Positions 9,336 through 34,511 of a stretch of DNA of 64,000 nt are shown here, one piece after another. The notes beneath the pieces were generated by a model that was not told the origin of the DNA, ran no database searches, and was given only the letters and a program-made list of their open reading frames with translations. This DNA comes from Candidatus Poseidoniaceae archaeon (GTDB taxonomy: Archaea > Thermoplasmatota > Poseidoniia > Poseidoniales > Poseidoniaceae): NCBI GenBank assembly GCA_943788295.1, contig CALSPS010000002.1, positions 187,352 through 251,351 on the forward strand. Reading direction: 5' to 3'. Position 1 is the first letter of the stretch. Each line of letters opens with the position of its first letter. The position numbers were made by a program, and so were the translations under genes.

Positions 9336-9494
9336 GTAGCGAGGGCGTCGTCTAGAGGACATCAACCATTCGTTCGTACAGTCACCCCCGAGCCATCCCG
9401 AATGAAACATAAAATCTCCAATTATTCTTTTTGGGAATATTGGTTGTTGTGAATAAGCGTTCCATTCATATAGTTGCGGTTGAGGGGGGGTGGC

Positions 9495-10730
9495 ATGACA
9501 GGCGACCTGTTCTCTTCTGAATCCGTAACCCGGGGCCACCCTGACAAGCTTTGCGACACCGTATCGGATGCCATTGTAGACGCCTGTTTGGCCGTTGATC
9601 CAAACGCCCGTGTGGCGGTTGAAACCTGTGTCAAGGGGAAAGAAAACCTAGGACTCATTGTGCTTGCTGGTGAAGTTTCACTCAACGGTCCGGCACCAGA
9701 TTACGAAGCAGTTGCACGCACTGCGGCCGTCGAGGTGGGGTACAACTCCCATGAGATTGGAATGGATGCAAGATCCGCTGAGTGGACAGAAGTCCAAGTT
9801 CACATCACAACTCAATCTTCAAACATCGCACAGGGTGTCAACAAGGATGGATTATCACAAGGTGCCGGTGACCAAGGGCTCATGTTTGGGTATGCCTGCA
9901 CTGAAACCGAATCATTCGACGAATTGAAGGGTCGCTTTTTCCCACTTGCTGCTGCGCTGTCCCAACGGCTCACACGACGGCTGACTGCCGTTCGAGAACA
10001 AGGCATTCTTCCATGGGCAAGACCCGATGGTAAATCTCAGGTGACCGTGGAGTACGACGAACATGGTGCCGTGTCAAAGGTACACACCGTTGTCATTGCC
10101 ATCCAACACGACAAGGCTCTCAAGGAACAATTTGACGGTTCAGAGGAAGCAGAACTCGCTCATGTGCGCAGCGAAATCGAGAAACATGTTGTCCAGTATG
10201 CCATCCCCGAAAGTTTGCTTGAGGGCGGTTACAAATTAGTCGTCAACGGGACAGGCCGTTTCGCAGATCCAGGAGGCCCATACGCAGATGCTGGTTTGAC
10301 TGGTCGAAAAATCATCGTCGATACATACGGAGGCATGGGCCGCCATGGTGGTGGCGCATTCTCAGGAAAAGATCCATCCAAAGTCGATCGGTCCGCAGCC
10401 TACGCATCCCGTTGGGCAGCAAAACACGTCGTCGCTGCTGGTCTTGCAGACCGTTGTGAAATCCAGCTTGCATACGTGATTGGCGTGGCTGAACCAGTGA
10501 GCGTTCGTGTTGAAACCTTCGGTACTTCCAGCCTAAACGATCGACTTCTTTCTGATCGTGTCAAGAAGGTCTTCGATTTCAGACCGGGCGCCATTGCTCG
10601 AGATTTACAACTTCTACGGCCAATTTATTCCACCACCGCAGCAGGTGGGCATTTCGGAAGGATTCCAGGGGACGATGGAACGTTCCCTTGGGAAGTGATT
10701 GAAGAATCACGTATTTCGAAGTTGCAGTAA
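9495..10730 (+). CDS. metK: S-adenosylmethionine synthetase (bacterial/eukaryal MetK type)
   Basis: FSSESVTRGHPDKLCDTVSDAIVDACL is the MetK N-terminal GHPDK signature, with MetK glycine-rich loops downstream. Start at ATG 9495, preceded by GAGGGGGGG. An AT-rich divergent intergenic region (9336..9494) is shared with aspS. Confidence 0.85.
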   Translation: MTGDLFSSESVTRGHPDKLCDTVSDAIVDACLAVDPNARVAVETCVKGKENLGLIVLAGEVSLNGPAPDYEAVARTAAVEVGYNSHEIGMDARSAEWTEVQVHITTQSSNIAQGVNKDGLSQGAGDQGLMFGYACTETESFDELKGRFFPLAAALSQRLTRRLTAVREQGILPWARPDGKSQVTVEYDEHGAVSKVHTVVIAIQHDKALKEQFDGSEEAELAHVRSEIEKHVVQYAIPESLLEGGYKLVVNGTGRFADPGGPYADAGLTGRKIIVDTYGGMGRHGGGAFSGKDPSKVDRSAAYASRWAAKHVVAAGLADRCEIQLAYVIGVAEPVSVRVETFGTSSLNDRLLSDRVKKVFDFRPGAIARDLQLLRPIYSTTAAGGHFGRIPGDDGTFPWEVIEESRISKLQ

Positions 10731-10820
10731 TGTCTTCTTCTCGGTATGGAAAGCGAATATTGAGCGGCCCATAGGGCCGATTCACTCAAGAGGTAGGCAT
10801 CCGTGGCTTGACTCGGTCTT

Positions 10821-13800
10821 ATGTCGTCTCGCTCCACTCGTGCTTTGGCCCTCGTCTCTGTTTTGCTTCTCGCAAGCCTCGCTCCGCTTGCGGTGCCGGC
10901 TGCTGCACACAGCGCAATTTTACTCTCCACAGACACCAGTCACGTGGTTCTTCAGCCCGGCGATGCAACCAACGTTACGCTCACAATCGAAAACAACGGC
11001 TCCTCCATCGAATCCTTCAACATCAGCGTGGATGACTCTGGACTTTCCAATGTGTGGACCGTAACTGCGGTTGATGCAACAGTGGACAATGTGTTCCCAA
11101 CTTGGACACGCAACACAACCATCGTTGTGCAATTGGCGACCGGGGCATTACCATCTGATGGTGGTTCATTCCTCATCGAGGTGACAGAACCAGATCAGAA
11201 CATTACTTCCTCGGTCGTCGTTTATGTCAACGTGCAACCTTCCTACAATCCTTTGTTGGATTTCAGTTCAAGCGGTCCTTTGTTGGAAATGGCGGCTGGT
11301 GCCTCAGGCAACGTCGCCGTTGACATCACCAATGGCGGTTCTGTAGCAGATACCCTTCTTTTGGATGTGGATTTCGAGCCAGACCTTGCCGCATGGTGGG
11401 CATCGAACGGCAACGCTACGGGTGGTAACGGGACCGGCAACGGGACTGGCAGCGGGAATGGAACCGGCAACGGGACTGGCAGCGGGAATGGAACCGGTAA
11501 CGGGACTGGCAGCGGGAATGGAACCGGTAACGGGACTGGCAGCGGGAATGGAACCGGTAACGGGACTGGCAGCGGGAACGGAACCGGCAATGGAACAGGT
11601 GGTGCCAACACAACCACCATCTCGAACGTCCTGATGTTCGGGAACAGTTACACCGCAAGCAGCAGCCTAAACGGTTTGCTCGAATCCATGGGCGTGCTCA
11701 ACGCCGATGCTATTTCGCCGGGTGGTAAGCGTTTAGATCAACACTGGAGCGATGTCAACACCTCTGCTCATGCCTCAAACACCACCTTGAGGGACCCAGC
11801 GATTGACTGGGACTACGTAGTGCTTCAAGATCAAAGTCAAGTCCCAGGATTCTATCGTACAACCTCCTCTTGGATTGCAAGTAAGGATGGCGCGGTTGCA
11901 TTAAGCCAAGCCGTCGATGATGAAGGCTCTGAGTCAATTTTGTTCATGACATGGGGCCGTCGAAATGGAGATGCGATGAATCCGACCCTCTACTCAAATT
12001 TCACGGTCATGCAGGACCGCTTAGAAGAGGGCTACATCGACTACAGGGACAACATGACTGCTGCGGGTTCAACAGTTTGGATTGCACCTGTCGGTCTTGC
12101 CTTCAAGCACATTCACGATAATGTGGTTGCGGGTGGCGTCAACGCAAGCGTCAGTGGAAATCTGTTTTACGACCTCTATTCTTCAGACGGAAGCCACCCT
12201 TCCCTTGCTGGAAGTTACCTTGCAGCGTGTGTGCTTTATGCCACAATGACTGGAACATCCCCAGTTGGCTCGAACGACACCGTCTCCCTCAACGCCAACA
12301 TAAAACTCCAACTTCAGCAAGCAGCTGCTGCGACCGTCTTCAACGAAACATCGCACCTCGACTATCCTTGGGAAAGTTCGAGCACAACTTCGACAACGAG
12401 TGCACGAGGTTTGGGCGGTGGCGTTCCAGCTGGATGGAATGTCCAATGGGTCGACGATCAACTGGACAACATGAGTGCAGGGGAAACCCGTCAAGTGACC
12501 TTGCAGATCAGCGTACCTGCGGATGTAACACCAGATTTCTACGGATTCAGGCTTTACGCAGCATCGACCCAGGGCAACGTCTCGAGTTCGACCATTGTTG
12601 TTGTTCACGTGGACGAACAACACAACCTAAGCATGGCGTTCCTCGACCAAGATGCAGACTTCATCCCTGGGTCAACCCAGAACACAAGCGTTGTAGTGAC
12701 CAACACCGGAAACGCTGAGGCTGATTTCGATTGGTCGATTGAATCCATATCAGGTCCTTGCGCATTCGCCCTTCCTGTCGCGTCTGCGCTCGCCGTTTCA
12801 CCAGATCAAGCGGTCAATGTTGCCGTTCAGGTCGATGTGCCTGCCTCTGCAACCATTGCCGATTCATGCACATTCAGCCTTTCCGGGTCAACACCTGATG
12901 GCAGTGCGATGATGGTTGCAGGAAGCGACACATTCACGATCGCTGTCGATGAACATGTCGAGTTCGAAGTTGTTGCTTTGGATTCGGTGGTTGAAGTGGA
13001 ACATGGTGCTGCATCCATGTACAATGTTCGTCTGTACAACAACGGAAGCGAAACCCGTTCGTTCAACCTAGAGGTTGTCGAGGTGACAGGCTTGGACACC
13101 GTTGTGACCTCCTCTCTTACGATTGATGTGGCCGCGGGTGAAACTGGTCTTTGGGCCATTGAAACTCAGGCAGATGAAGGCACAGTGGGCGACTTCATTC
13201 AATTCTTTGAGGTCATCCGTGGAGATCAAACTTCAACCACATCTGTGGAAATTGAAGTCTTGCCAACGGCACAAATCGAGTTGGCAGGGCCTCTGGATGG
13301 TCGAATTTTGATGCAGCCAGGTTCCACAAGCAGCACCGTCTTGACTGTGACCAATACTGGTACAGGAAACGTTTCTTTGGTGGCTTCTCTTTCCGGGCTA
13401 CCGGCTTCAGTCCAAGCGGAAATCAGCCACACATCGCTGTCGCTGACCGTTGGTGAAACCGCTCAAGTTCACCTCAATCTTTCTTTAGCGAACAATGCAG
13501 ATCCGGGGACGCATCCACTCACGATAGGCTTTGGTGGTTCAGGGGCCTCGGCAACAACAAGCATTGATTTGCAAATCCAAGACCGGTTTGCAGTGCTTGT
13601 TTCCACCACCTCGAGCGATATGGTCGCAGGCCCAGCCAACAATGCAAGTGCCACCTTTGATGTCACCAACCTCGGCACTTCCACGGACATTTACCAACTC
13701 AGCATCGTTGATGCCTCACAATCCGATTGGTTTTCATTCACGCTCTCCACGACCTCGGTCACGGTTGGAGCAGGAGAAACGGCAACCGTTGAATTGTCTG

Positions 13801-27878: not shown

Positions 27879-28892
27879 TCACTGCTCGGAAACATAGCCG
27901 AGTTGACTCAGCAAACCATCGATCAGTCGAAGCAGTCCCCTCAGGGTCACTTCAGACACATTGGCGACTCCACACACTTCAGATTGTGTTCGAGGAGAAC
28001 CTGATTCGCTGGATGCTTTGTAAATCAGTGCTGCTGCGACACCCATTGGCTTCTTCCCTTGCCAGATGTCCTCGTGCGGTTGAATGGCGGACCACAGGTG
28101 GCCCACTTGGATGTGGGTGTTTGGTGGTAATTGGAGATCTGAGATGAACTTGTCAAAGTACTGGTCTGGGGACGATATCTTGTGGAGGTTTAGCCTCCGG
28201 GACACTTGGCGAATCAAGCGAGAAAGTTCCTTTTCAGTCACATCGAAAGCCCGAGAGATGTCTGGGATTTGACGTGGGAGGTTTTCTTGGCGAGCGACGA
28301 GGTATGTGCATGCTGCAGTCACACCTGCGATGGACCGTCCAGTGACGAACCCTTCACCTGACAAGCGTCGGTACAAACGAGCTGCTTCCTCTTGGAGCGG
28401 CTTTGGTAAACCTGAGTTGTCTCGTATGAATTGGTTAGCACGAACGAGGTTGCGCTCTCTGCTCTTTCGAGTTTTGGAACGCTCATCGATGACTCGACGG
28501 CGTCGCCACTCTCTGCGTGCTTGGGATGAGATCCCGTGGCGTCCTGCTGATCCAGTGTTCAGGTCGCGAACATCAATCGTGGTGTTCAGGCCCTTGTCGG
28601 CTAGAGTGTAGGTGAGCGGTTGGCCAACCCGTGAGCGATCTTGGCTTCTGTCCCTGTTGGTCCACTCTGCGCCTGGGTCAATGACGTTTTCTTCAACGAC
28701 GAGACCGCATGCATTGCATGTGATTTCGCCGCGGCTGTCGTCAAGTTGCCAGTCCACGACGCCGCATTCTTCGCATGGTCGTGTGTGACCCTCCAGCGTT
28801 CGCCGGACGGAATGGCTGCTTTCTCTCGAGTCACGCGTGACCGGGGAGCTTGTGTTTAGGTTGCTTGTTTGGGGCTTTGTGTTTTGCTTCAT
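27879..28892 (-). CDS. tfb: Transcription initiation factor IIB (TFB)
   Basis: N-terminal zinc ribbon CEECG...CNACG, B-linker, and two cyclin-fold repeats (RNLVRANQFIRD..., GRSIAGVTAACTYLVAR...). It has an unusually long Ser/Thr-rich 38-aa N-terminal extension. Confidence 0.85.
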   Translation of the reverse strand: MKQNTKPQTSNLNTSSPVTRDSRESSHSVRRTLEGHTRPCEECGVVDWQLDDSRGEITCNACGLVVEENVIDPGAEWTNRDRSQDRSRVGQPLTYTLADKGLNTTIDVRDLNTGSAGRHGISSQARREWRRRRVIDERSKTRKSRERNLVRANQFIRDNSGLPKPLQEEAARLYRRLSGEGFVTGRSIAGVTAACTYLVARQENLPRQIPDISRAFDVTEKELSRLIRQVSRRLNLHKISSPDQYFDKFISDLQLPPNTHIQVGHLWSAIQPHEDIWQGKKPMGVAAALIYKASSESGSPRTQSEVCGVANVSEVTLRGLLRLIDGLLSQLGYVSEQ

Positions 28893-29141: not shown

Positions 29142-30449
29142 ATGCCAGCAACTGTCGTTCTTGGAGCACAATGGGGAGATGAAGGAAAAGGAAAACTAGT
29201 GGACAGGATTGCTGAACAGGCCACATGGGTTGTTCGTTTCCAAGGTGGTAACAACGCCGGACACACAGTGGTTCTCGGAGAACAAGTCCTCAAGTTCCAT
29301 TTGCTCCCATCGGGAATCACCCGCAAGGAATGCAACTTGGTTCTCGGCGACGGCATGGTGATTGATCCTTGGGTTCTTGACACCGAATTAAACGGCTGGA
29401 AGGACAGCACGGGTGAGGACCCCAGAGGCGACCGTTTGTTCATCAGCGAACGGGCTCACGTGATTCTCCCCTACCATTGCATTTTAGACGGTCAGGATAA
29501 GAAAATCGGTACAACAGGACGAGGTATAGGCCCGACCTATGCAGATAAAATCAACAGAATTGGATTGCGGTTCGGTGACCTTGCCGAAGTGAACGGTGAT
29601 GACGAATGGATTCACTCGACGGCGAACAGAATGAACGCCAGCCTTACTGCTGCAGGATGCGAGGACCGAATCAAGGAGGCAGACCTCAAATCTGATGTGG
29701 CCTGGATCCTCGAATCGTACGCTGGCTGCATTGCCAACACTGGTTTGATGCTCGATAACGCACTCAAACTGGATGAACATGTCATCCTCGAAGGCGCTCA
29801 AGGATGCTTGCTTGATATTGACCAAGGCACTTTCCCCTACGTCACATCATCTGTGACTTCACGCGGCAATGCCGGCCACGGTGCGGGCATTCATCCGGGC
29901 CATGTTGAAGACGTGATTGGCATCACGAAAGCCTACATCACGCGCGTGGGCCACGGAGCAATGCCGACTGAATTGGAAGATGAAGTCGGAGACCACCTAG
30001 GTACCATCGGTCATGAATTTGGTACCACCACCGGACGCAAGCGACGCTGCGGTTGGTTCGATGCTGTTGTCATGCGTCATGCACAGCGAGTGAATGGATT
30101 CACAGGACTTGCCTTGACGAAATTGGATGTGCTTGGTGGTCTTGAAGAATTGAACATCTGTGTGGCATACGAATTGGATGGGAAGGAAATCCTCGAAATG
30201 CCAGCAAGTGCCACCGCACTCGCCCGATGCAATCCGATTTACATCACAATGCCAGGATTCCCTGGTCATTCCCTCGAGGAATGGCTCGCCATTGCCAAGA
30301 AGGCTAACGCCGATGCTGCGGGATACGCATCACTGCCAACAGCCGCTCAATTGTACATCAAAAAGATCGAAGCGCTTGTGGGTGTACCTTGCACCAGCGT
30401 TGGCGTTGGACCAGACCGTGATGCAACGATTGACTGCGTTGATGCGTGA
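29142..30449 (+). CDS. purA: Adenylosuccinate synthetase
   Basis: The N-terminal GAQWGDEGKGKLVD is the PurA P-loop signature, with GNNAGHTV and GTTGRGIGP motifs downstream. GGGAGAAG precedes the ATG. Confidence 0.9.
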   Translation: MPATVVLGAQWGDEGKGKLVDRIAEQATWVVRFQGGNNAGHTVVLGEQVLKFHLLPSGITRKECNLVLGDGMVIDPWVLDTELNGWKDSTGEDPRGDRLFISERAHVILPYHCILDGQDKKIGTTGRGIGPTYADKINRIGLRFGDLAEVNGDDEWIHSTANRMNASLTAAGCEDRIKEADLKSDVAWILESYAGCIANTGLMLDNALKLDEHVILEGAQGCLLDIDQGTFPYVTSSVTSRGNAGHGAGIHPGHVEDVIGITKAYITRVGHGAMPTELEDEVGDHLGTIGHEFGTTTGRKRRCGWFDAVVMRHAQRVNGFTGLALTKLDVLGGLEELNICVAYELDGKEILEMPASATALARCNPIYITMPGFPGHSLEEWLAIAKKANADAAGYASLPTAAQLYIKKIEALVGVPCTSVGVGPDRDATIDCVDA

Positions 30450-30511: not shown

Positions 30512-30584
30512 GGGCGTTTAGCTCAGTTGGAAGAGTGCTTGGTTTGCAACCAAGATGTCGTGGGTTCAAATCCCACAACGTCCA
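30512..30584 (+). tRNA. tRNA-Ala (anticodon TGC)
   Basis: Hand-folded cloverleaf. The acceptor stem gggcgtt/aacgtcc carries the G3:U70 wobble (the Ala identity element). D stem is gctc/gagt, the anticodon loop tttgcaa, the T arm gtggg-ttcaaat-cccac, and the discriminator A73. No CCA is encoded. Confidence 0.9.
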
Positions 30585-30643
30585 TTTCCCTGCTCAAAGA
30601 GTCTGAACCCCGTGAGGTTTTGACTCACTGTGATTGTCATCAA

Positions 30644-31969
30644 TCATTCAAGAAGTGCCTCAGCATCCTTGAGTTCGCGTTTCAACTTTCGCTCCAAGAT
30701 CTCAATTTGGTCTTTGAGGTTCTGGATCACGCTCATGGCATTGCTGGCGTTGCCCTTCATGGCTTGGAAGTCACCAAGGTCGGTTTTAATTTGAGCAAGA
30801 GATTTCCTCAAGGCATCCACATCCACCTCAATCTCACCCTGAGCATGGAGTTGCTCGTTGACAAGTTGGATGCGCAAGGTTCGGTAGATCACCTCCAGAG
30901 CAAGGAAGTCGTCGTTCTTCCAGTCCACGCCGACAAGGTAATTTTCATCTTCCTTTTCAACAACGAAAGAACGAACACCCATGTGCTTACGCTCCATGAG
31001 GCCGATGCCGCAGAGAGCAGAGCGATTCTTGACACCTTCACGAATCTGCCGAAGCAATTCTTTTCGAGGAATCTTACCCGCTTTGGCTTCAATGGCCACC
31101 CGCAGCGGAGGAAGGCCGGTGTGATTTATGACCAGGACAATGTCACCAACCTTGGAACGTGAAGCACCTTCCCCTTCACCACCCGTGTGTTCCACGCGGT
31201 CACCAAACAAACCAGCGATGTCCTGTAGCGCATCAACACTGTCATTTTCAAAGTGAATACCCTTGCCAGTGCTCTTCTCATGGAGTTCTTCAATCTCCTG
31301 TTCCTTAGCTTGGAGGGTTTCATCGACGTTGAGTGCATCTTCTATGCGCTTCATTCGAGCGTCAAGTTGTTCACCCATTTCGGTCATGGTTTGAGCCACC
31401 ATGGTCCGAATTTCACCGACACGTTCCCGTTGTTCCCGAACAAACTTGCCGAGGTTGGTCTTTTCGTCCGTGATGTCCGTGGCTTGGCTGAGTATGGTCA
31501 TCACCTGTGTGGCCTGATCCAAGAGGACTTGGCCTGTCTTTGCAGGAATGGAATTAGCCTGTTCGGGGTCAGTTAGGTTGTTTGTAACTGATTTCAACAA
31601 ACGCTCAAGAAGGCCGTCTGAGCCAAGAGTCTCTTGCATGCGACGTGCGAGGATTGAATCGTTGCCCGTCAAATTAGACTCGACAAAAGCCTCTAGATTT
31701 TTGTTGATTTCTTGTTGTTGTGAGAGGGTTTGCTCAGCCGTGTGTTCCACCATGCGCTCAAGTTCACTTGTGTCTAACGAGAGAGAGGCATTGGCCATTG
31801 CGAGAATACCGATTTGAGTGGCATTATTGAGGTAGTCAATCAAATCCTCTTTCGAATTTCGGAATTGTTCCGGGATTTGAATCCATACATTGTGTGGAAT
31901 ATTGAGTTCAATTGAATGTGACGATTGCTCAACATTGGGTTCCTGTGTGCGGGGTTCTCTGATGGTCAT
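30644..31969 (-). CDS. Coiled-coil protein with C-terminal PD-(D/E)XK nuclease-like domain (DUF2130/RmuC-like)
   Basis: 441 aa. Residues ~60-250 are heptad-rich and Gln/Glu-rich. The C-terminal core VGDIVLVINHTGLPPLRVAIEAKAGKIPRKELL has D276 ... E294-x-K296 in PD-(D/E)XK spacing, followed by a coiled-coil tail. Confidence 0.5.
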   Translation of the reverse strand: MTIREPRTQEPNVEQSSHSIELNIPHNVWIQIPEQFRNSKEDLIDYLNNATQIGILAMANASLSLDTSELERMVEHTAEQTLSQQQEINKNLEAFVESNLTGNDSILARRMQETLGSDGLLERLLKSVTNNLTDPEQANSIPAKTGQVLLDQATQVMTILSQATDITDEKTNLGKFVREQRERVGEIRTMVAQTMTEMGEQLDARMKRIEDALNVDETLQAKEQEIEELHEKSTGKGIHFENDSVDALQDIAGLFGDRVEHTGGEGEGASRSKVGDIVLVINHTGLPPLRVAIEAKAGKIPRKELLRQIREGVKNRSALCGIGLMERKHMGVRSFVVEKEDENYLVGVDWKNDDFLALEVIYRTLRIQLVNEQLHAQGEIEVDVDALRKSLAQIKTDLGDFQAMKGNASNAMSVIQNLKDQIEILERKLKRELKDAEALLE

Positions 31970-32058
31970 GTCTCTACAAGGCTCCTACCCCTTATAAATT
32001 GTTCAACCGGTTAAATTTGGGCTGGCATAAGTATGGCAGGGATTCGAGTCACAAGCGT

Positions 32059-32508
32059 TCAGTTCAGCCATGTATTGGATGGTTCTAAGAGCAATTTTTC
32101 AGCGTGCCAACCGGAAAAATGAACCGTTGGTGCAGGCAAATCAATCCCCTCTGATCTTAGGTCTGTGAAGAATTTCATAAGTGAAAGAAAGCCGTTGATG
32201 GGTAATGCATTCTCCACTGCATCATTGGGTGCGAGCGTCCAGAATAATTCAGGTACACATCCGCCGATCATGCTTGAGATACCAACCATCTTTGATTCCC
32301 CGAGGTTTACTTCGGAATCTTGAATGCACATGAGCCAGATGTGCAGATCCTCATACTTCTCGATTCTAGGCTGTAGCAATGCGATTGAGCGTCGAAGTTC
32401 ATCGCGATGTTGCCTCACAAAGCCCAAATCCACCTTGGTGAACCCTCTTGGTATTCCCAAAGCTTGCAGTACCGTTTCTAAATTCCATCCATAGGTTATT
32501 GATGCCAT
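32059..32508 (-). CDS. Hypothetical protein (149 aa) upstream of the DUF2130-like gene
   Basis: No recognisable motif. Same strand, 89-bp gap to the downstream gene. Confidence 0.3.
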   Translation of the reverse strand: MASITYGWNLETVLQALGIPRGFTKVDLGFVRQHRDELRRSIALLQPRIEKYEDLHIWLMCIQDSEVNLGESKMVGISSMIGGCVPELFWTLAPNDAVENALPINGFLSLMKFFTDLRSEGIDLPAPTVHFSGWHAEKLLLEPSNTWLN

Positions 32509-32639
32509 ATTTTGAACTTACAATTCACAGTATATGAACCAAAATAAGACGGCTGTTCTCGAAGTGAAAGTAAAATCACAACTCCTCTTGTCGCACAGAT
32601 GGGGCACGTTGAACTAAATGTTCACCATTGGCAAACCAA

Positions 32640-34511
32640 TCAAACACACACTGTATGCGTGCAGGCTGGTGGTGTGAAGTATTGCCGATCTTCTGGGATG
32701 AAGGTGTCCAACTGCAAGGTTGAGCCTTCGCCTTCTTGGATGAAGACGACTGATGAGGTGCTCGCTGGAAGGTAATCCTCGCCTGTTGACAGCAGGCTGA
32801 GTCTTAATCGGTGACCTGCCTCAATCTCAGCGTCCAACGGCATGAATTCCATCTTCGCATTGATGGTTTCGACCAGTGGGGTCCATGTTTGGATGTCATC
32901 CCCGCCTGCGTGATACCGCAAATCCATGATAGCGTGTCCAATATGGATGCATTCATCGTTTTCATCGCAATCTTCCAAGAGCGCGTAAAGTTGGCCACCA
33001 ACCGTAGCGGTCGTCACATCGACATGGAGTCGAGGCGTGCCTGCGACGTACAATGTTTCGCCCAGTGGTTCTGATTCCCAAGTCGGGCCTGTTGTCGCAT
33101 CTGGTAATACGCTCATTCCTCCGCCCACACTCGTGAGCATACCTCCAAGGTCCATGCTCATGACTTCAACGTCGATTGGAGGGTAGCGGTCTTCAAGTCG
33201 CCAAGAACCCTGATTCGATTGGATTTCGACGTACAATCCGGGTTGTTCACCCTCGCCTCGTAGATAGAAATCAAACCACTCAAGGAGGTCTTGCATCCAA
33301 TCCATTCGAACCATTTCAGGGAAGGCTTCTCCTCCTCGGCCGCCCATGTCGGAACGGTCGAACAGTTGTTGTGGGCGGTCTGGATAATCGTGATCCCATT
33401 GACCAAACAAGCCCTTTGCATCGATGCCTGCATCCTTCAGAGCGTTGATGGTCGGAACCGCCATGTGAGGGTCGACGTTCCAATCGTGCATGCCTTGAAT
33501 CAGGTAAACGCTGCCTTGGTAATTTTCGATCACTCGGTCGAGGAAGTAACGTTCTGCCCAATAATCACCTGCAACTTCAGAACCAAAAATATAGGCGGAA
33601 ACGCCAGTTCCGGGCCCAATGAGGTAATCTGGGCATATGTTTTGGTAATCTTCCTCATCACCGTCAATTCCGTATGATCCGTAGACCCCGTTGTGCATGA
33701 TCGGTGCGCGTGCTTCTGCTGAGCCGTTGCGCCACATCAATTCCTTGACGCCGATGAGGCCGGAGATTGGCACGATGGTCTTGAGGTAATCATGTTCTGC
33801 CCCAAACATAGCTGCTTGCCAAGGTGTGCTGCCGTCGTAGGATTTTCCAATCATGCCAACAGCGCCGTTGGACCAATTTTGTTCACCAAACCAGCGAACT
33901 GCCGCGTCGTTGCCGAGTTGCTCTGCGTTGCCCATGAGGTCCATGCAGTGGTTCGAGCGACCCGTGCCGGCAACTGAAACTTGGGCGAAGGCATAGCCAT
34001 GCGGGAGAATCTGGTCGATGATCATCTGGCCGAGCCATGTGCCAGGTACCTCGATGCTCGGTGTTTCAACCGATGCTTCCTGGAAGTATGGTCCAAATTC
34101 CGCAATCACAGGGACCTTGACGCCTTCTGGAACATTTGGTCGCCACACTGCAAGGCTGATGACCGCGTCGTCTGGAGCAGCCCCACCCTCGCTGATTGGA
34201 AGGGAATACTCGACAAAGTGGTGGGTTGAATTCCATTCGTTCTCCGTTGCGAGAATTTCGTAAGGACCAACTTCCAACGCTATGCCGAAGTCGCCTTCTG
34301 TTTCATAGGGCAAGGTCGACCTCTCCCACACTGGAACCCGGTAAGGGTTTGAAGATCCTTCTTCGTCGACAACGAGGTCCATGACGGCTTCACCGAACAC
34401 AGCCGAGACGAATAAAAAGACCAAAGAGACGGCAATTGTCGAGCCCAACACGAGGTTGAATTCTCTTGAGCGTTGACTTCGCTCAATCAAATCGCTCTCC
34501 AAATCGCTCAT
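32640..34511 (-). CDS. Membrane-anchored S15/CocE-NonD family hydrolase (X-Pro dipeptidyl-peptidase-like)
   Basis: N-terminal signal anchor (LVLGSTIAVSLVFLFVSAVF). The GKSYDGSTPWQAA nucleophile elbow is GxSYxG as in S15 peptidases. A C-terminal beta-sandwich-like region follows. 623 aa. Confidence 0.6.
   Translation of the reverse strand: MSDLESDLIERSQRSREFNLVLGSTIAVSLVFLFVSAVFGEAVMDLVVDEEGSSNPYRVPVWERSTLPYETEGDFGIALEVGPYEILATENEWNSTHHFVEYSLPISEGGAAPDDAVISLAVWRPNVPEGVKVPVIAEFGPYFQEASVETPSIEVPGTWLGQMIIDQILPHGYAFAQVSVAGTGRSNHCMDLMGNAEQLGNDAAVRWFGEQNWSNGAVGMIGKSYDGSTPWQAAMFGAEHDYLKTIVPISGLIGVKELMWRNGSAEARAPIMHNGVYGSYGIDGDEEDYQNICPDYLIGPGTGVSAYIFGSEVAGDYWAERYFLDRVIENYQGSVYLIQGMHDWNVDPHMAVPTINALKDAGIDAKGLFGQWDHDYPDRPQQLFDRSDMGGRGGEAFPEMVRMDWMQDLLEWFDFYLRGEGEQPGLYVEIQSNQGSWRLEDRYPPIDVEVMSMDLGGMLTSVGGGMSVLPDATTGPTWESEPLGETLYVAGTPRLHVDVTTATVGGQLYALLEDCDENDECIHIGHAIMDLRYHAGGDDIQTWTPLVETINAKMEFMPLDAEIEAGHRLRLSLLSTGEDYLPASTSSVVFIQEGEGSTLQLDTFIPEDRQYFTPPACTHTVCV

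Follow-up and report, generated by a model that had tools for sequence, protein, structure and literature searches.

A gene lying next to a tRNA-Ala gene of a Candidatus Poseidoniaceae archaeon was found to encode a 441-aa protein whose core is a PD-(D/E)XK nuclease fold. The gene was studied within a stretch of 64,000 nucleotides (contig CALSPS010000002.1, positions 187,352 to 251,351 of the forward strand), referred to here as the window, whose source is a Poseidoniales (Marine Group II, MGII) archaeon and which contains an archaeal TFB gene. Three independent lines of evidence, namely residue conservation, structure and sequence bridges, establish the fold. Overall, the protein is best explained, and probably so, as a standalone soluble metal-dependent DNA endonuclease belonging to a large unnamed family. 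The original prediction, made from the sequence alone, had recognised the tRNA-Ala gene, open reading frames (ORFs) of 441 and 149 aa and the residues D276 and E294-A-K296, all of which were found where it had placed them.

The PD-(D/E)XK core and its flanking helices

The nuclease gene and its parts are located in the window as follows.

30644 to 31969, minus strand: the 441-aa protein, a probable standalone DUF2130/Mrr-like PD-(D/E)XK nuclease, with ATG start and stop codon at 30644-30646 (ORF list, homologues)
31274 to 31969, minus strand: residues 1-232, the all-helical N-terminal region (AlphaFold2 secondary structure)
30821 to 31273, minus strand: residues 233-383, the PD-(D/E)XK nuclease domain
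31247 to 31249, minus strand: codon of E241, the motif I acidic residue on alpha1, within the motif K236-G237-x-x-F240-E241 (conservation)
31199 to 31201, minus strand: codon of D257 (conservation)
31142 to 31144, minus strand: codon of D276, the motif II Asp at the start of beta2, within the motif K273-x-G275-D276 (conservation)
31082 to 31090, minus strand: codons of E294-A295-K296, the motif III ExK at the end of beta3 (conservation)
30647 to 30820, minus strand: residues 384-441, the C-terminal helix (~57 residues) with strong heptad-like periodicity (AlphaFold2 helix 384-440 and periodicity)

Positions 276, 294, 295 and 296 of the protein are Asp, Glu, Ala and Lys, lying inside the stretch ...KVGDIVLVINHTGLPPLRVAIEAKAGK.... 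In an alignment of 26 sequences reaching down to 21% identity (A1), the invariant residues include K236, G237, F240, E241, D257, K273, G275, D276, E294 and K296. In a 50-sequence sample of the family with a mean column identity of 21% (A2), G237, D257, G275 and D276 are invariant and E241, K273, E294 and K296 are conserved to at least 90%. The same picture was obtained with a domain-only alignment (A4), with invariant D276 and E294 and at least 90% conservation of E241 and K296.

The full-length AlphaFold model is of moderate quality, with a predicted local distance difference test (pLDDT) score of 70.9 and a predicted template modelling (pTM) score of 0.40, and the strands and helices of the core are already visible in it. 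When residues 225-385 were modelled alone with 34 diverse sequences, a confident structure resulted (pLDDT 86.7, pTM 0.81). The elements of residues 233-383 follow the order alpha(238-253)-beta(258-262)-beta(277-281)-beta(289-295)-alpha(302-315)-beta(320-326)-beta-beta-alpha, and thereby contain the alpha-beta-beta-beta-alpha-beta core of the PD-(D/E)XK superfamily. The catalytic signature of the superfamily is likewise complete and canonical in its layout: helix alpha1 carries E241, D276 stands where beta2 starts, and E294-x-K296 where beta3 ends. Foldseek searches with the full model returned MspJI, EcoT38I, AF1548 and BamHI with weaker statistics (best E=4.4e-3), and a library of viral structures gave matches to Mrr-domain and 'restriction endonuclease' proteins (best E=1.4e-4). 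A D...ExK spacing could arise by chance alone; the conservation and the fold taken together show that it did not do so here. Thus, the nuclease core that had originally been proposed from the spacing of D276, E294 and K296 is borne out, as structure prediction yields a restriction-type fold and the three residues are conserved in the homologues.

The same data bear on the idea that the protein is an inactive scaffold of the TIP26 type, which we consider extremely unlikely. The full E...D...ExK signature is conserved in a very divergent family, a hallmark of active members, and the proximity to the TFB gene is not conserved in any other lineage.

Besides the canonical signature, G256 and D257, which form a pair where beta1 starts, are invariant throughout the family and as conserved as the catalytic D276. 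D257 may serve as an additional metal ligand or as a structural cap.

Outside the core, the N-terminal half had been described as a long Gln/Glu-rich coiled coil. Residues 1-232 are indeed rich in both amino acids (12.5% Glu, 8.6% Gln) and are predicted to be all-helical, but significant 3.5-residue amphipathic periodicity is confined to residues ~155-217 (z=3.7-5.9) and ~379-441 (z=5.0-6.1). These periodic stretches correspond to two long, coiled-coil-like helices (~172-232 and 384-440) that bracket the nuclease domain, and helix 384-441 is the probable partner of helix 172-232. Family-specific conserved positions are found in the N-terminal region at G54, in the G116/G119 region, in a P135...S140-x-P142 motif and at D165, as well as at L173. 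Residues ~20-165 are therefore regarded as a conserved helical domain rather than a generic coiled coil. No transmembrane segment was detected in the protein, the maximum Kyte-Doolittle mean over 19 residues being 1.16 and located in the beta2-beta3 core, and the protein is predicted to be soluble.

A large family next to DUF2130 and Mrr_cat

The 441-aa protein has 108 homologous clusters and the neighbouring 149-aa ORF has 53, which identifies both ORFs as genuine genes. Every named source of the 441-aa homologues is MGII (Poseidonia, Poseidoniaceae, Thalassarchaeaceae and 'marine group II/III euryarchaeote' records), and the gene is present in metagenome-assembled genomes (MAGs) of both Poseidoniaceae and Thalassarchaeaceae. 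A homology search with a broad profile returned mostly the MGII sequences already found. An exhaustive profile search gave 2,291 cluster representatives (50% identity) with a cutoff of E<=1e-3, of which 1,480 also passed E<=1e-10. The majority are 400-450 aa long and matched over nearly their full length, and the family reaches far into Bacteria. No model in Pfam, NCBIfam or PADLOC is dedicated to it.

Searches of Pfam, NCBIfam, PADLOC, PHROGs and PDB sequences with the window protein (phmmer and profile) gave only sub-threshold noise, and the profile matches to PDB were coiled-coil artefacts (spike S2, designed helical bundles). The protein has no match to DUF2130 (PF09903) at E<=1, as is also the case for its MGII homologues, and none to Mrr_cat (PF04471); its best match in PADLOC-DB 2.0 is PtuB with E=0.012. 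RmuC (PF02646) was detected neither in the 441-aa protein nor in any of 50 family members at E<=0.01. When the same 50 members were compared with Pfam at this threshold, six matched DUF2130 (best E=1.2e-7), five Mrr_cat and one PDDEXK_15. A single Mrr_cat match, that of P0307 with 21.7 bits, exceeds the gathering threshold of 21 bits, and the relatives P0177 (25.9 bits, 0.8 short) and P0191 (24.0 bits) come close to the DUF2130 cutoff of 26.7 bits. Judged by these comparisons, DUF2130 and Mrr_cat are the nearest Pfam families, reached only by distant relatives. The likeness to DUF2130 that had been suggested for the protein is thus real at the level of the family, as its nearest Pfam neighbour, while the window protein itself does not match; the likeness to RmuC suggested at the same time has to be given up, there being neither a PF02646 match among the 50 members nor a membrane anchor.

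The closest non-MGII relatives in the first search, P0106 (528 aa) and P0107 (425 aa), both look eukaryote-like. P0106 is a protein from a EukProt transcriptome with 34% identity and a long N-terminal extension, whereas the nuclease domain of P0107 is interrupted by a low-complexity Ala/Ser insert, and the C-terminal tail of this protein is basic. This suggests contamination, or a transfer between MGII archaea and a marine eukaryote.

Among the named systems, DUF2130 proteins share with the 441-aa protein a general layout in which a PD-(D/E)XK core comes after an N-terminal region of helical or coiled-coil character, in a total of ~400-450 aa. They have the same class of catalytic fold and form the nearest sequence family. 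In the 2012 survey of the PD-(D/E)XK superfamily, the function of DUF2130 (PF09903; COG4487) is given as 'Unknown' and its distribution as bacterial with one archaeon (PMC3424549). The clade of the 441-aa protein, by contrast, is archaeal and marine. With type IV restriction endonucleases of the Mrr type (Mrr_cat), the protein shares the fold and the D...ExK layout as well as the lack of a cognate methyltransferase. It differs from them in having no recognisable winged-helix, SRA or PUA domain for sensing modifications; in place of such a reader domain it has the family-specific helical N-terminal domain and the long flanking helices. The minimal fold, with its acidic-Asp-(Glu-x-Lys) catalytic pattern, is also that of the Holliday-junction resolvase Hjc and of NucS/EndoMS, a nuclease of mismatches and flaps, which are likewise archaeal chromosomal enzymes. 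However, Hjc comprises only ~120-140 aa and has no helical extensions, and no similarity of the 441-aa protein to Hjc or NucS/EndoMS was detected at the sequence level in the Pfam and PDB searches.

RmuC and the Shield protein ShdA have in common with the 441-aa protein that a PD-(D/E)XK core and an N-terminal non-catalytic region are combined in a single protein. ShdA alone protects against phage, and its products degrade DNA in vitro; a nuclease of the RmuC type can thus make up an entire defence system by itself (PMC10270631). ShdA is anchored in the membrane by an N-terminal transmembrane segment (PMC10270631), whereas the 441-aa protein has neither an RmuC domain nor a membrane anchor. 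A coiled-coil nuclease of the CoCoNuT/McrBC type (PMC11090510) was considered as well and rejected, as neither an McrB GTPase partner nor a tandem-nuclease layout was present at any locus examined. In its predicted working the 441-aa protein resembles an enzyme of the Mrr/DUF2130 type, yet by the thresholds of the hidden Markov models it stands outside DUF2130, Mrr_cat and RmuC.

The tRNA-Ala integration site and the 149-aa neighbour

The local gene order is TFB (minus strand), purA (plus), tRNA-Ala (plus), 441-aa ORF (minus), 149-aa ORF (minus), S15 peptidase (minus) and DEAD-box helicase (minus), with the following features around the nuclease gene.

27879 to 28892, minus strand: TFB (Pfam TFIIB and Zn_Ribbon_TF)
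29142 to 30449, plus strand: purA
30512 to 30584, plus strand: tRNA-Ala with anticodon TGC, convergent with the nuclease gene (ARAGORN)
30567 to 30584, plus strand: attachment (att) core, the last 18 nt of tRNA-Ala, empty in the window and duplicated around a 3.6-kb insert in the strain contig L103
31992 to 31998, minus strand: TTTATAA, a TATA-like box 22 nt upstream of the nuclease start codon (read directly in the sequence)
32059 to 32508, minus strand: 149-aa MGII-specific protein with ATG start, a neighbour only (ORF list, homologues)
32640 to 34511, minus strand: S15 peptidase

Eight strain contigs encode an identical 441-aa protein, and the block formed by the DEAD-box helicase, S15 peptidase, 149-aa and 441-aa genes shows 99.8-99.9% nucleotide identity. 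The contigs differ only beyond window position ~30567-30616, just past the end of the nuclease gene, and four of the eight resemble the window at tRNA-Ala. L103 carries at this point a 3.6-kb insert (9404-12996) with a gene for a 338-aa serine recombinase (Pfam Resolvase; PHROG DNA invertase/integrase) and four small ORFs. By blastn, L103 1-9403 corresponds to window 39969-30567 and L103 12997-17326 to window 30584-26255; since these matches overlap, window 30567-30584 is present at both ends of the insert as an 18-bp direct repeat. L106 (from 9397) and L108 break at window 30573/30574 and carry different cargo, and L107 (from 9355) breaks at 30616. In L108, a 1.3-kb insert (9398-10747) is followed by a 55-bp repeat of window 30574-30628. 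In the window itself, neither an integrase nor an att duplication was found at this site, and a single att copy is present, in agreement with what had been noted originally. Thus, the 3' end of tRNA-Ala is a live integration hotspot in the sister strains and the window represents the empty site. The enzyme that targets the tRNA gene seems to be a serine recombinase, where a tyrosine integrase would be usual.

The suspicion that this tRNA locus is a hotspot was therefore correct. The nuclease gene, described originally as chromosomal-accessory, is not cargo of this hotspot: it is chromosomal and has its fixed place outside the att-bounded segment, on the constant flank, and the 3.6-kb insert that the att repeat encloses together with the recombinase in L103 lacks it.

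The gene could still be the relic cargo of an old mobile element at tRNA-Ala whose integrase and distal att site have decayed, a scenario that we regard as very unlikely. It would fit with the position of the gene directly beside a tRNA with an active integration site in sister strains, with a GC content at 31-33 kb slightly below the ~0.52 found elsewhere and with the fact that relatives with 76-89% identical homologues carry the gene elsewhere. It would also fit with the conservation of TFB and purA in relatives in which the sequence after purA differs. The order TFB-purA(-tRNA-Ala) is indeed kept in relatives without a nuclease gene following it; of the metagenomic purA loci compared, only four came from MGII relatives, and of these one ends at the tRNA and the others have no tRNA after purA. 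Against the scenario, the att core (30567-30584) separates the tRNA body from the gene, and elements integrating today thus end up next to the gene rather than around it. Furthermore, the locus in the window retains neither a second att copy nor a remnant of an integrase, and the block from the DEAD-box helicase to the 441-aa gene is invariant in all strains seen. The dip in GC content covers both ORFs (0.487 and 0.469 over 31001-33000, compared to ~0.50-0.55 in the flanks) and is mild; no att or integrase signal coincides with it.

Homologues of the 149-aa protein were found in MGII only, all named sources being MGII, and searches of Pfam, NCBIfam, PADLOC, PHROGs and PDB with it gave no match. 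The protein is well conserved, with C61, Q63-D64-S65-E66 and H130-F-S-G-W-H135 among its invariant positions, and these motifs are enzyme-like. The original prediction had treated the 149-aa and 441-aa genes as a pair, and a two-gene system of nuclease and regulator, or of toxin and antitoxin, with the 149-aa ORF was considered. Both genes are on the same strand, and their spacing of 89 bp is kept in the window and in all strains of the species. Outside the species, however, no homologue of the 149-aa gene was found by tblastn within ~6 kb of the nuclease gene at any of 13 loci (L001-L005, L012-L019), among them loci with nucleases 89%, 76% and 71% identical to that of the window. Conversely, none of the four loci carrying homologues of the 149-aa gene (L006-L009; 58-59% identity) has a nuclease gene nearby, and their neighbourhood is a different one. 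Furthermore, a TATA-like box CATATAC is located 21 nt before the ATG of the 149-aa gene, in addition to TTTATAA before the nuclease gene. Going by the usual geometry of archaeal promoters, we infer that the two genes are separate leaderless transcripts with their own promoters. The nuclease family also extends far into Bacteria, whereas the 149-aa family is restricted to MGII. In the absence of conserved adjacency, the pairing is effectively refuted, and we see next to no probability for a two-gene system.

Possible function of the nuclease

From what is known of the PD-(D/E)XK superfamily (PMC3424549), the 441-aa protein is very probably a metal-dependent endonuclease. By analogy with other superfamily members, its acidic triad would bind Mg2+, and K296 would activate or position the water molecule that attacks. 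Helices ~172-232 and 384-440 would pack as a coiled-coil stalk that dimerises the enzyme, whose two active sites would then cut both strands, while the N-terminal helical domain (~20-165) would select the substrate or gate the activity. The nuclease gene would be transcribed alone from its own TATA box into a leaderless mRNA.

The neighbours of the nuclease gene differ in every lineage, and no conserved gene partner was found. Copies 89% identical to the window nuclease (L012, L013) differ from each other downstream, and the neighbours are different in each case when L013 and L014 (89% and 76%) or L005 and L015 (71%) are considered. These neighbours of L012-L015 and L005 are absent from the 64-kb window, apart from weak matches of the ABC-ATPase type.

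Two of these lineages show arrangements of their own. In the 71% lineage (L005 1-6007, L015 516-4658), the start of the nuclease gene overlaps the end of a gene for a 464/473-aa protein with GHKL-ATPase-like matches (HATPase_c_3 E=1.3e-4; precomputed MPN635_N), which is preceded by genes for 173-aa and 753-aa proteins without family; this gene run may be a lineage-specific operon. About 5 kb further upstream in this lineage, a 1,452-aa product has a precomputed match to PF00940 (single-subunit RNA polymerase), which is unexpected on an MGII contig. In L001 (5863-7798) and L002, whose nuclease shows 45% identity, the start of the nuclease gene follows a tRNA-Arg(TCT) gene at a distance of 61 nt, and the 3' end of the nuclease gene overlaps by 14 nt with a convergent gene for a 160-aa Endonuc_Holl (PF10107) protein. 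This second tRNA adjacency, together with the juxtaposition of two nucleases, may be coincidental.

The most likely role of the protein, which we propose tentatively, is that of a methylase-independent restriction-type nuclease acting against foreign or abnormal DNA. A restriction-like role is plausible because three of the seven non-MGII relatives sit in defence islands. The relative in a Thermincolia MAG is located between Wadjet-like genes (SbcC/SMC, then DUF3323 and DUF2399) and a CRISPR-Cas cluster (Cas6-WYL-Cas3). On a Methanomethylovorans plasmid, the relative, annotated as 'restriction endonuclease', follows directly after a cluster of methyltransferase and DEAD/DEAH helicase and precedes a RelE toxin gene. 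The third (L111) is flanked by Type I S, RelA/SpoT, NUDIX and AAA_15 genes on one side and by a Piwi/prokaryotic Argonaute (pAgo) gene on the other. Two further observations support a restriction-type role. The location of the MGII gene shifts even between 89% identical homologues, and a species-level genome scan with an MGII-only alignment (A3) found the gene in only nine Poseidoniales genomes, a count limited by the search pattern and without a determinable denominator. The precedent of ShdA, where one RmuC-type nuclease suffices for defence, also counts in favour of such a role.

The order of genes in L111 (1-11591) is Type I restriction-modification S, Hypoth_Ymh, a 339-aa protein of no assigned family, RelA_SpoT (203 aa), NUDIX, an AAA_15/AAA_21 ATPase (655 aa), a further such protein of 341 aa and then the nuclease homologue, after which come two small ORFs and a pAgo of 745 aa with a Piwi domain. 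Within this compact island, the genes from RelA/SpoT through NUDIX to the ATPase may form an undescribed system of their own.

In a more far-reaching form of the proposal, which we judge to be quite unlikely, the whole family would be an unrecognised type of single-protein innate-immunity nuclease, soluble, methylase-independent, dimerised by coiled coils, widespread in Bacteria and Archaea and resident in MGII, whose N-terminal domain would sense foreign or modified DNA. The shifting location between congeners and the defence-island contexts of the three distant relatives are compatible with this.

Several results weigh against the view of the protein as a standalone endonuclease with a defensive role. 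The remaining four of the seven non-MGII contexts contain nothing related to defence, and the neighbourhoods in MGII consist mostly of housekeeping genes (GlnA, S-adenosylmethionine synthetase, AdoHcyase, peptidases, purA, TFB). The identities among the MGII homologues are tree-like, with 70-90% and 56-77% within clades and ~45-50% between clades, a pattern in keeping with a resident gene inherited vertically and not with the patchiness that defence genes typically show. A search of a phage collection gave no match, and the comparison of 50 members with PADLOC gave only scattered single weak matches, the best being E=9.5e-5 to PDC-S02 in one member. The best Pfam match of the 441-aa protein, PDDEXK_15, is below threshold (E=0.013; 15.8 bits compared to a cutoff of 27). 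Finally, the stalk and the dimer geometry are conjectural, as the full-length model is only moderate (pTM 0.40).

Some of these points would instead suit a resident housekeeping nuclease of genome maintenance or recombination with a role like that of E. coli RmuC, Hjc or NucS, in which the coiled coil would dimerise or space the enzyme. Such a maintenance enzyme of Poseidoniales would resolve or trim aberrant DNA structures. This alternative, which appears somewhat unlikely to us, is favoured by the occurrence of the gene in both Poseidoniaceae and Thalassarchaeaceae MAGs with tree-like divergence, by its housekeeping neighbourhoods in MGII and by its 100% identity across many strain contigs while the adjoining hotspot varies. 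The convergent, 14-nt overlapping arrangement with the Endonuc_Holl gene in L001/L002 and the lack of a methyltransferase partner point in the same direction. On the other hand, there is no conserved linkage to a repair or replication gene, the location shifts even among congeners, three distant relatives are found in clear defence islands and RmuC (PF02646) is undetected in the 50 members. The occurrence in only nine Poseidoniales genomes, if not due to the limit of the search pattern, likewise argues against a universal core function. On balance, a restriction-type nuclease remains our preferred, tentative reading.

Overall, the 441-aa protein is a new, so far unmodelled member of a well-known superfamily; its fold and active site are textbook, and no new mechanism is demonstrated. 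At least 2,291 clusters (50% identity) lack a model in Pfam, NCBIfam or PADLOC. With a profile derived from the present alignments, thousands of 'hypothetical proteins' could be recognised as probable PD-(D/E)XK nucleases. Furthermore, the live tRNA-Ala site of small serine-recombinase elements should be useful for the study of mobile elements in MGII and for genetic tools. Marine Group II is among the most abundant archaeal groups of the surface ocean, and to our knowledge almost nothing of its virus-defence biology has been described. If the restriction-like role is true, the nuclease would be a new single-gene defence candidate and would provide a first handle on antiviral mechanisms in the uncultivated Poseidoniales.

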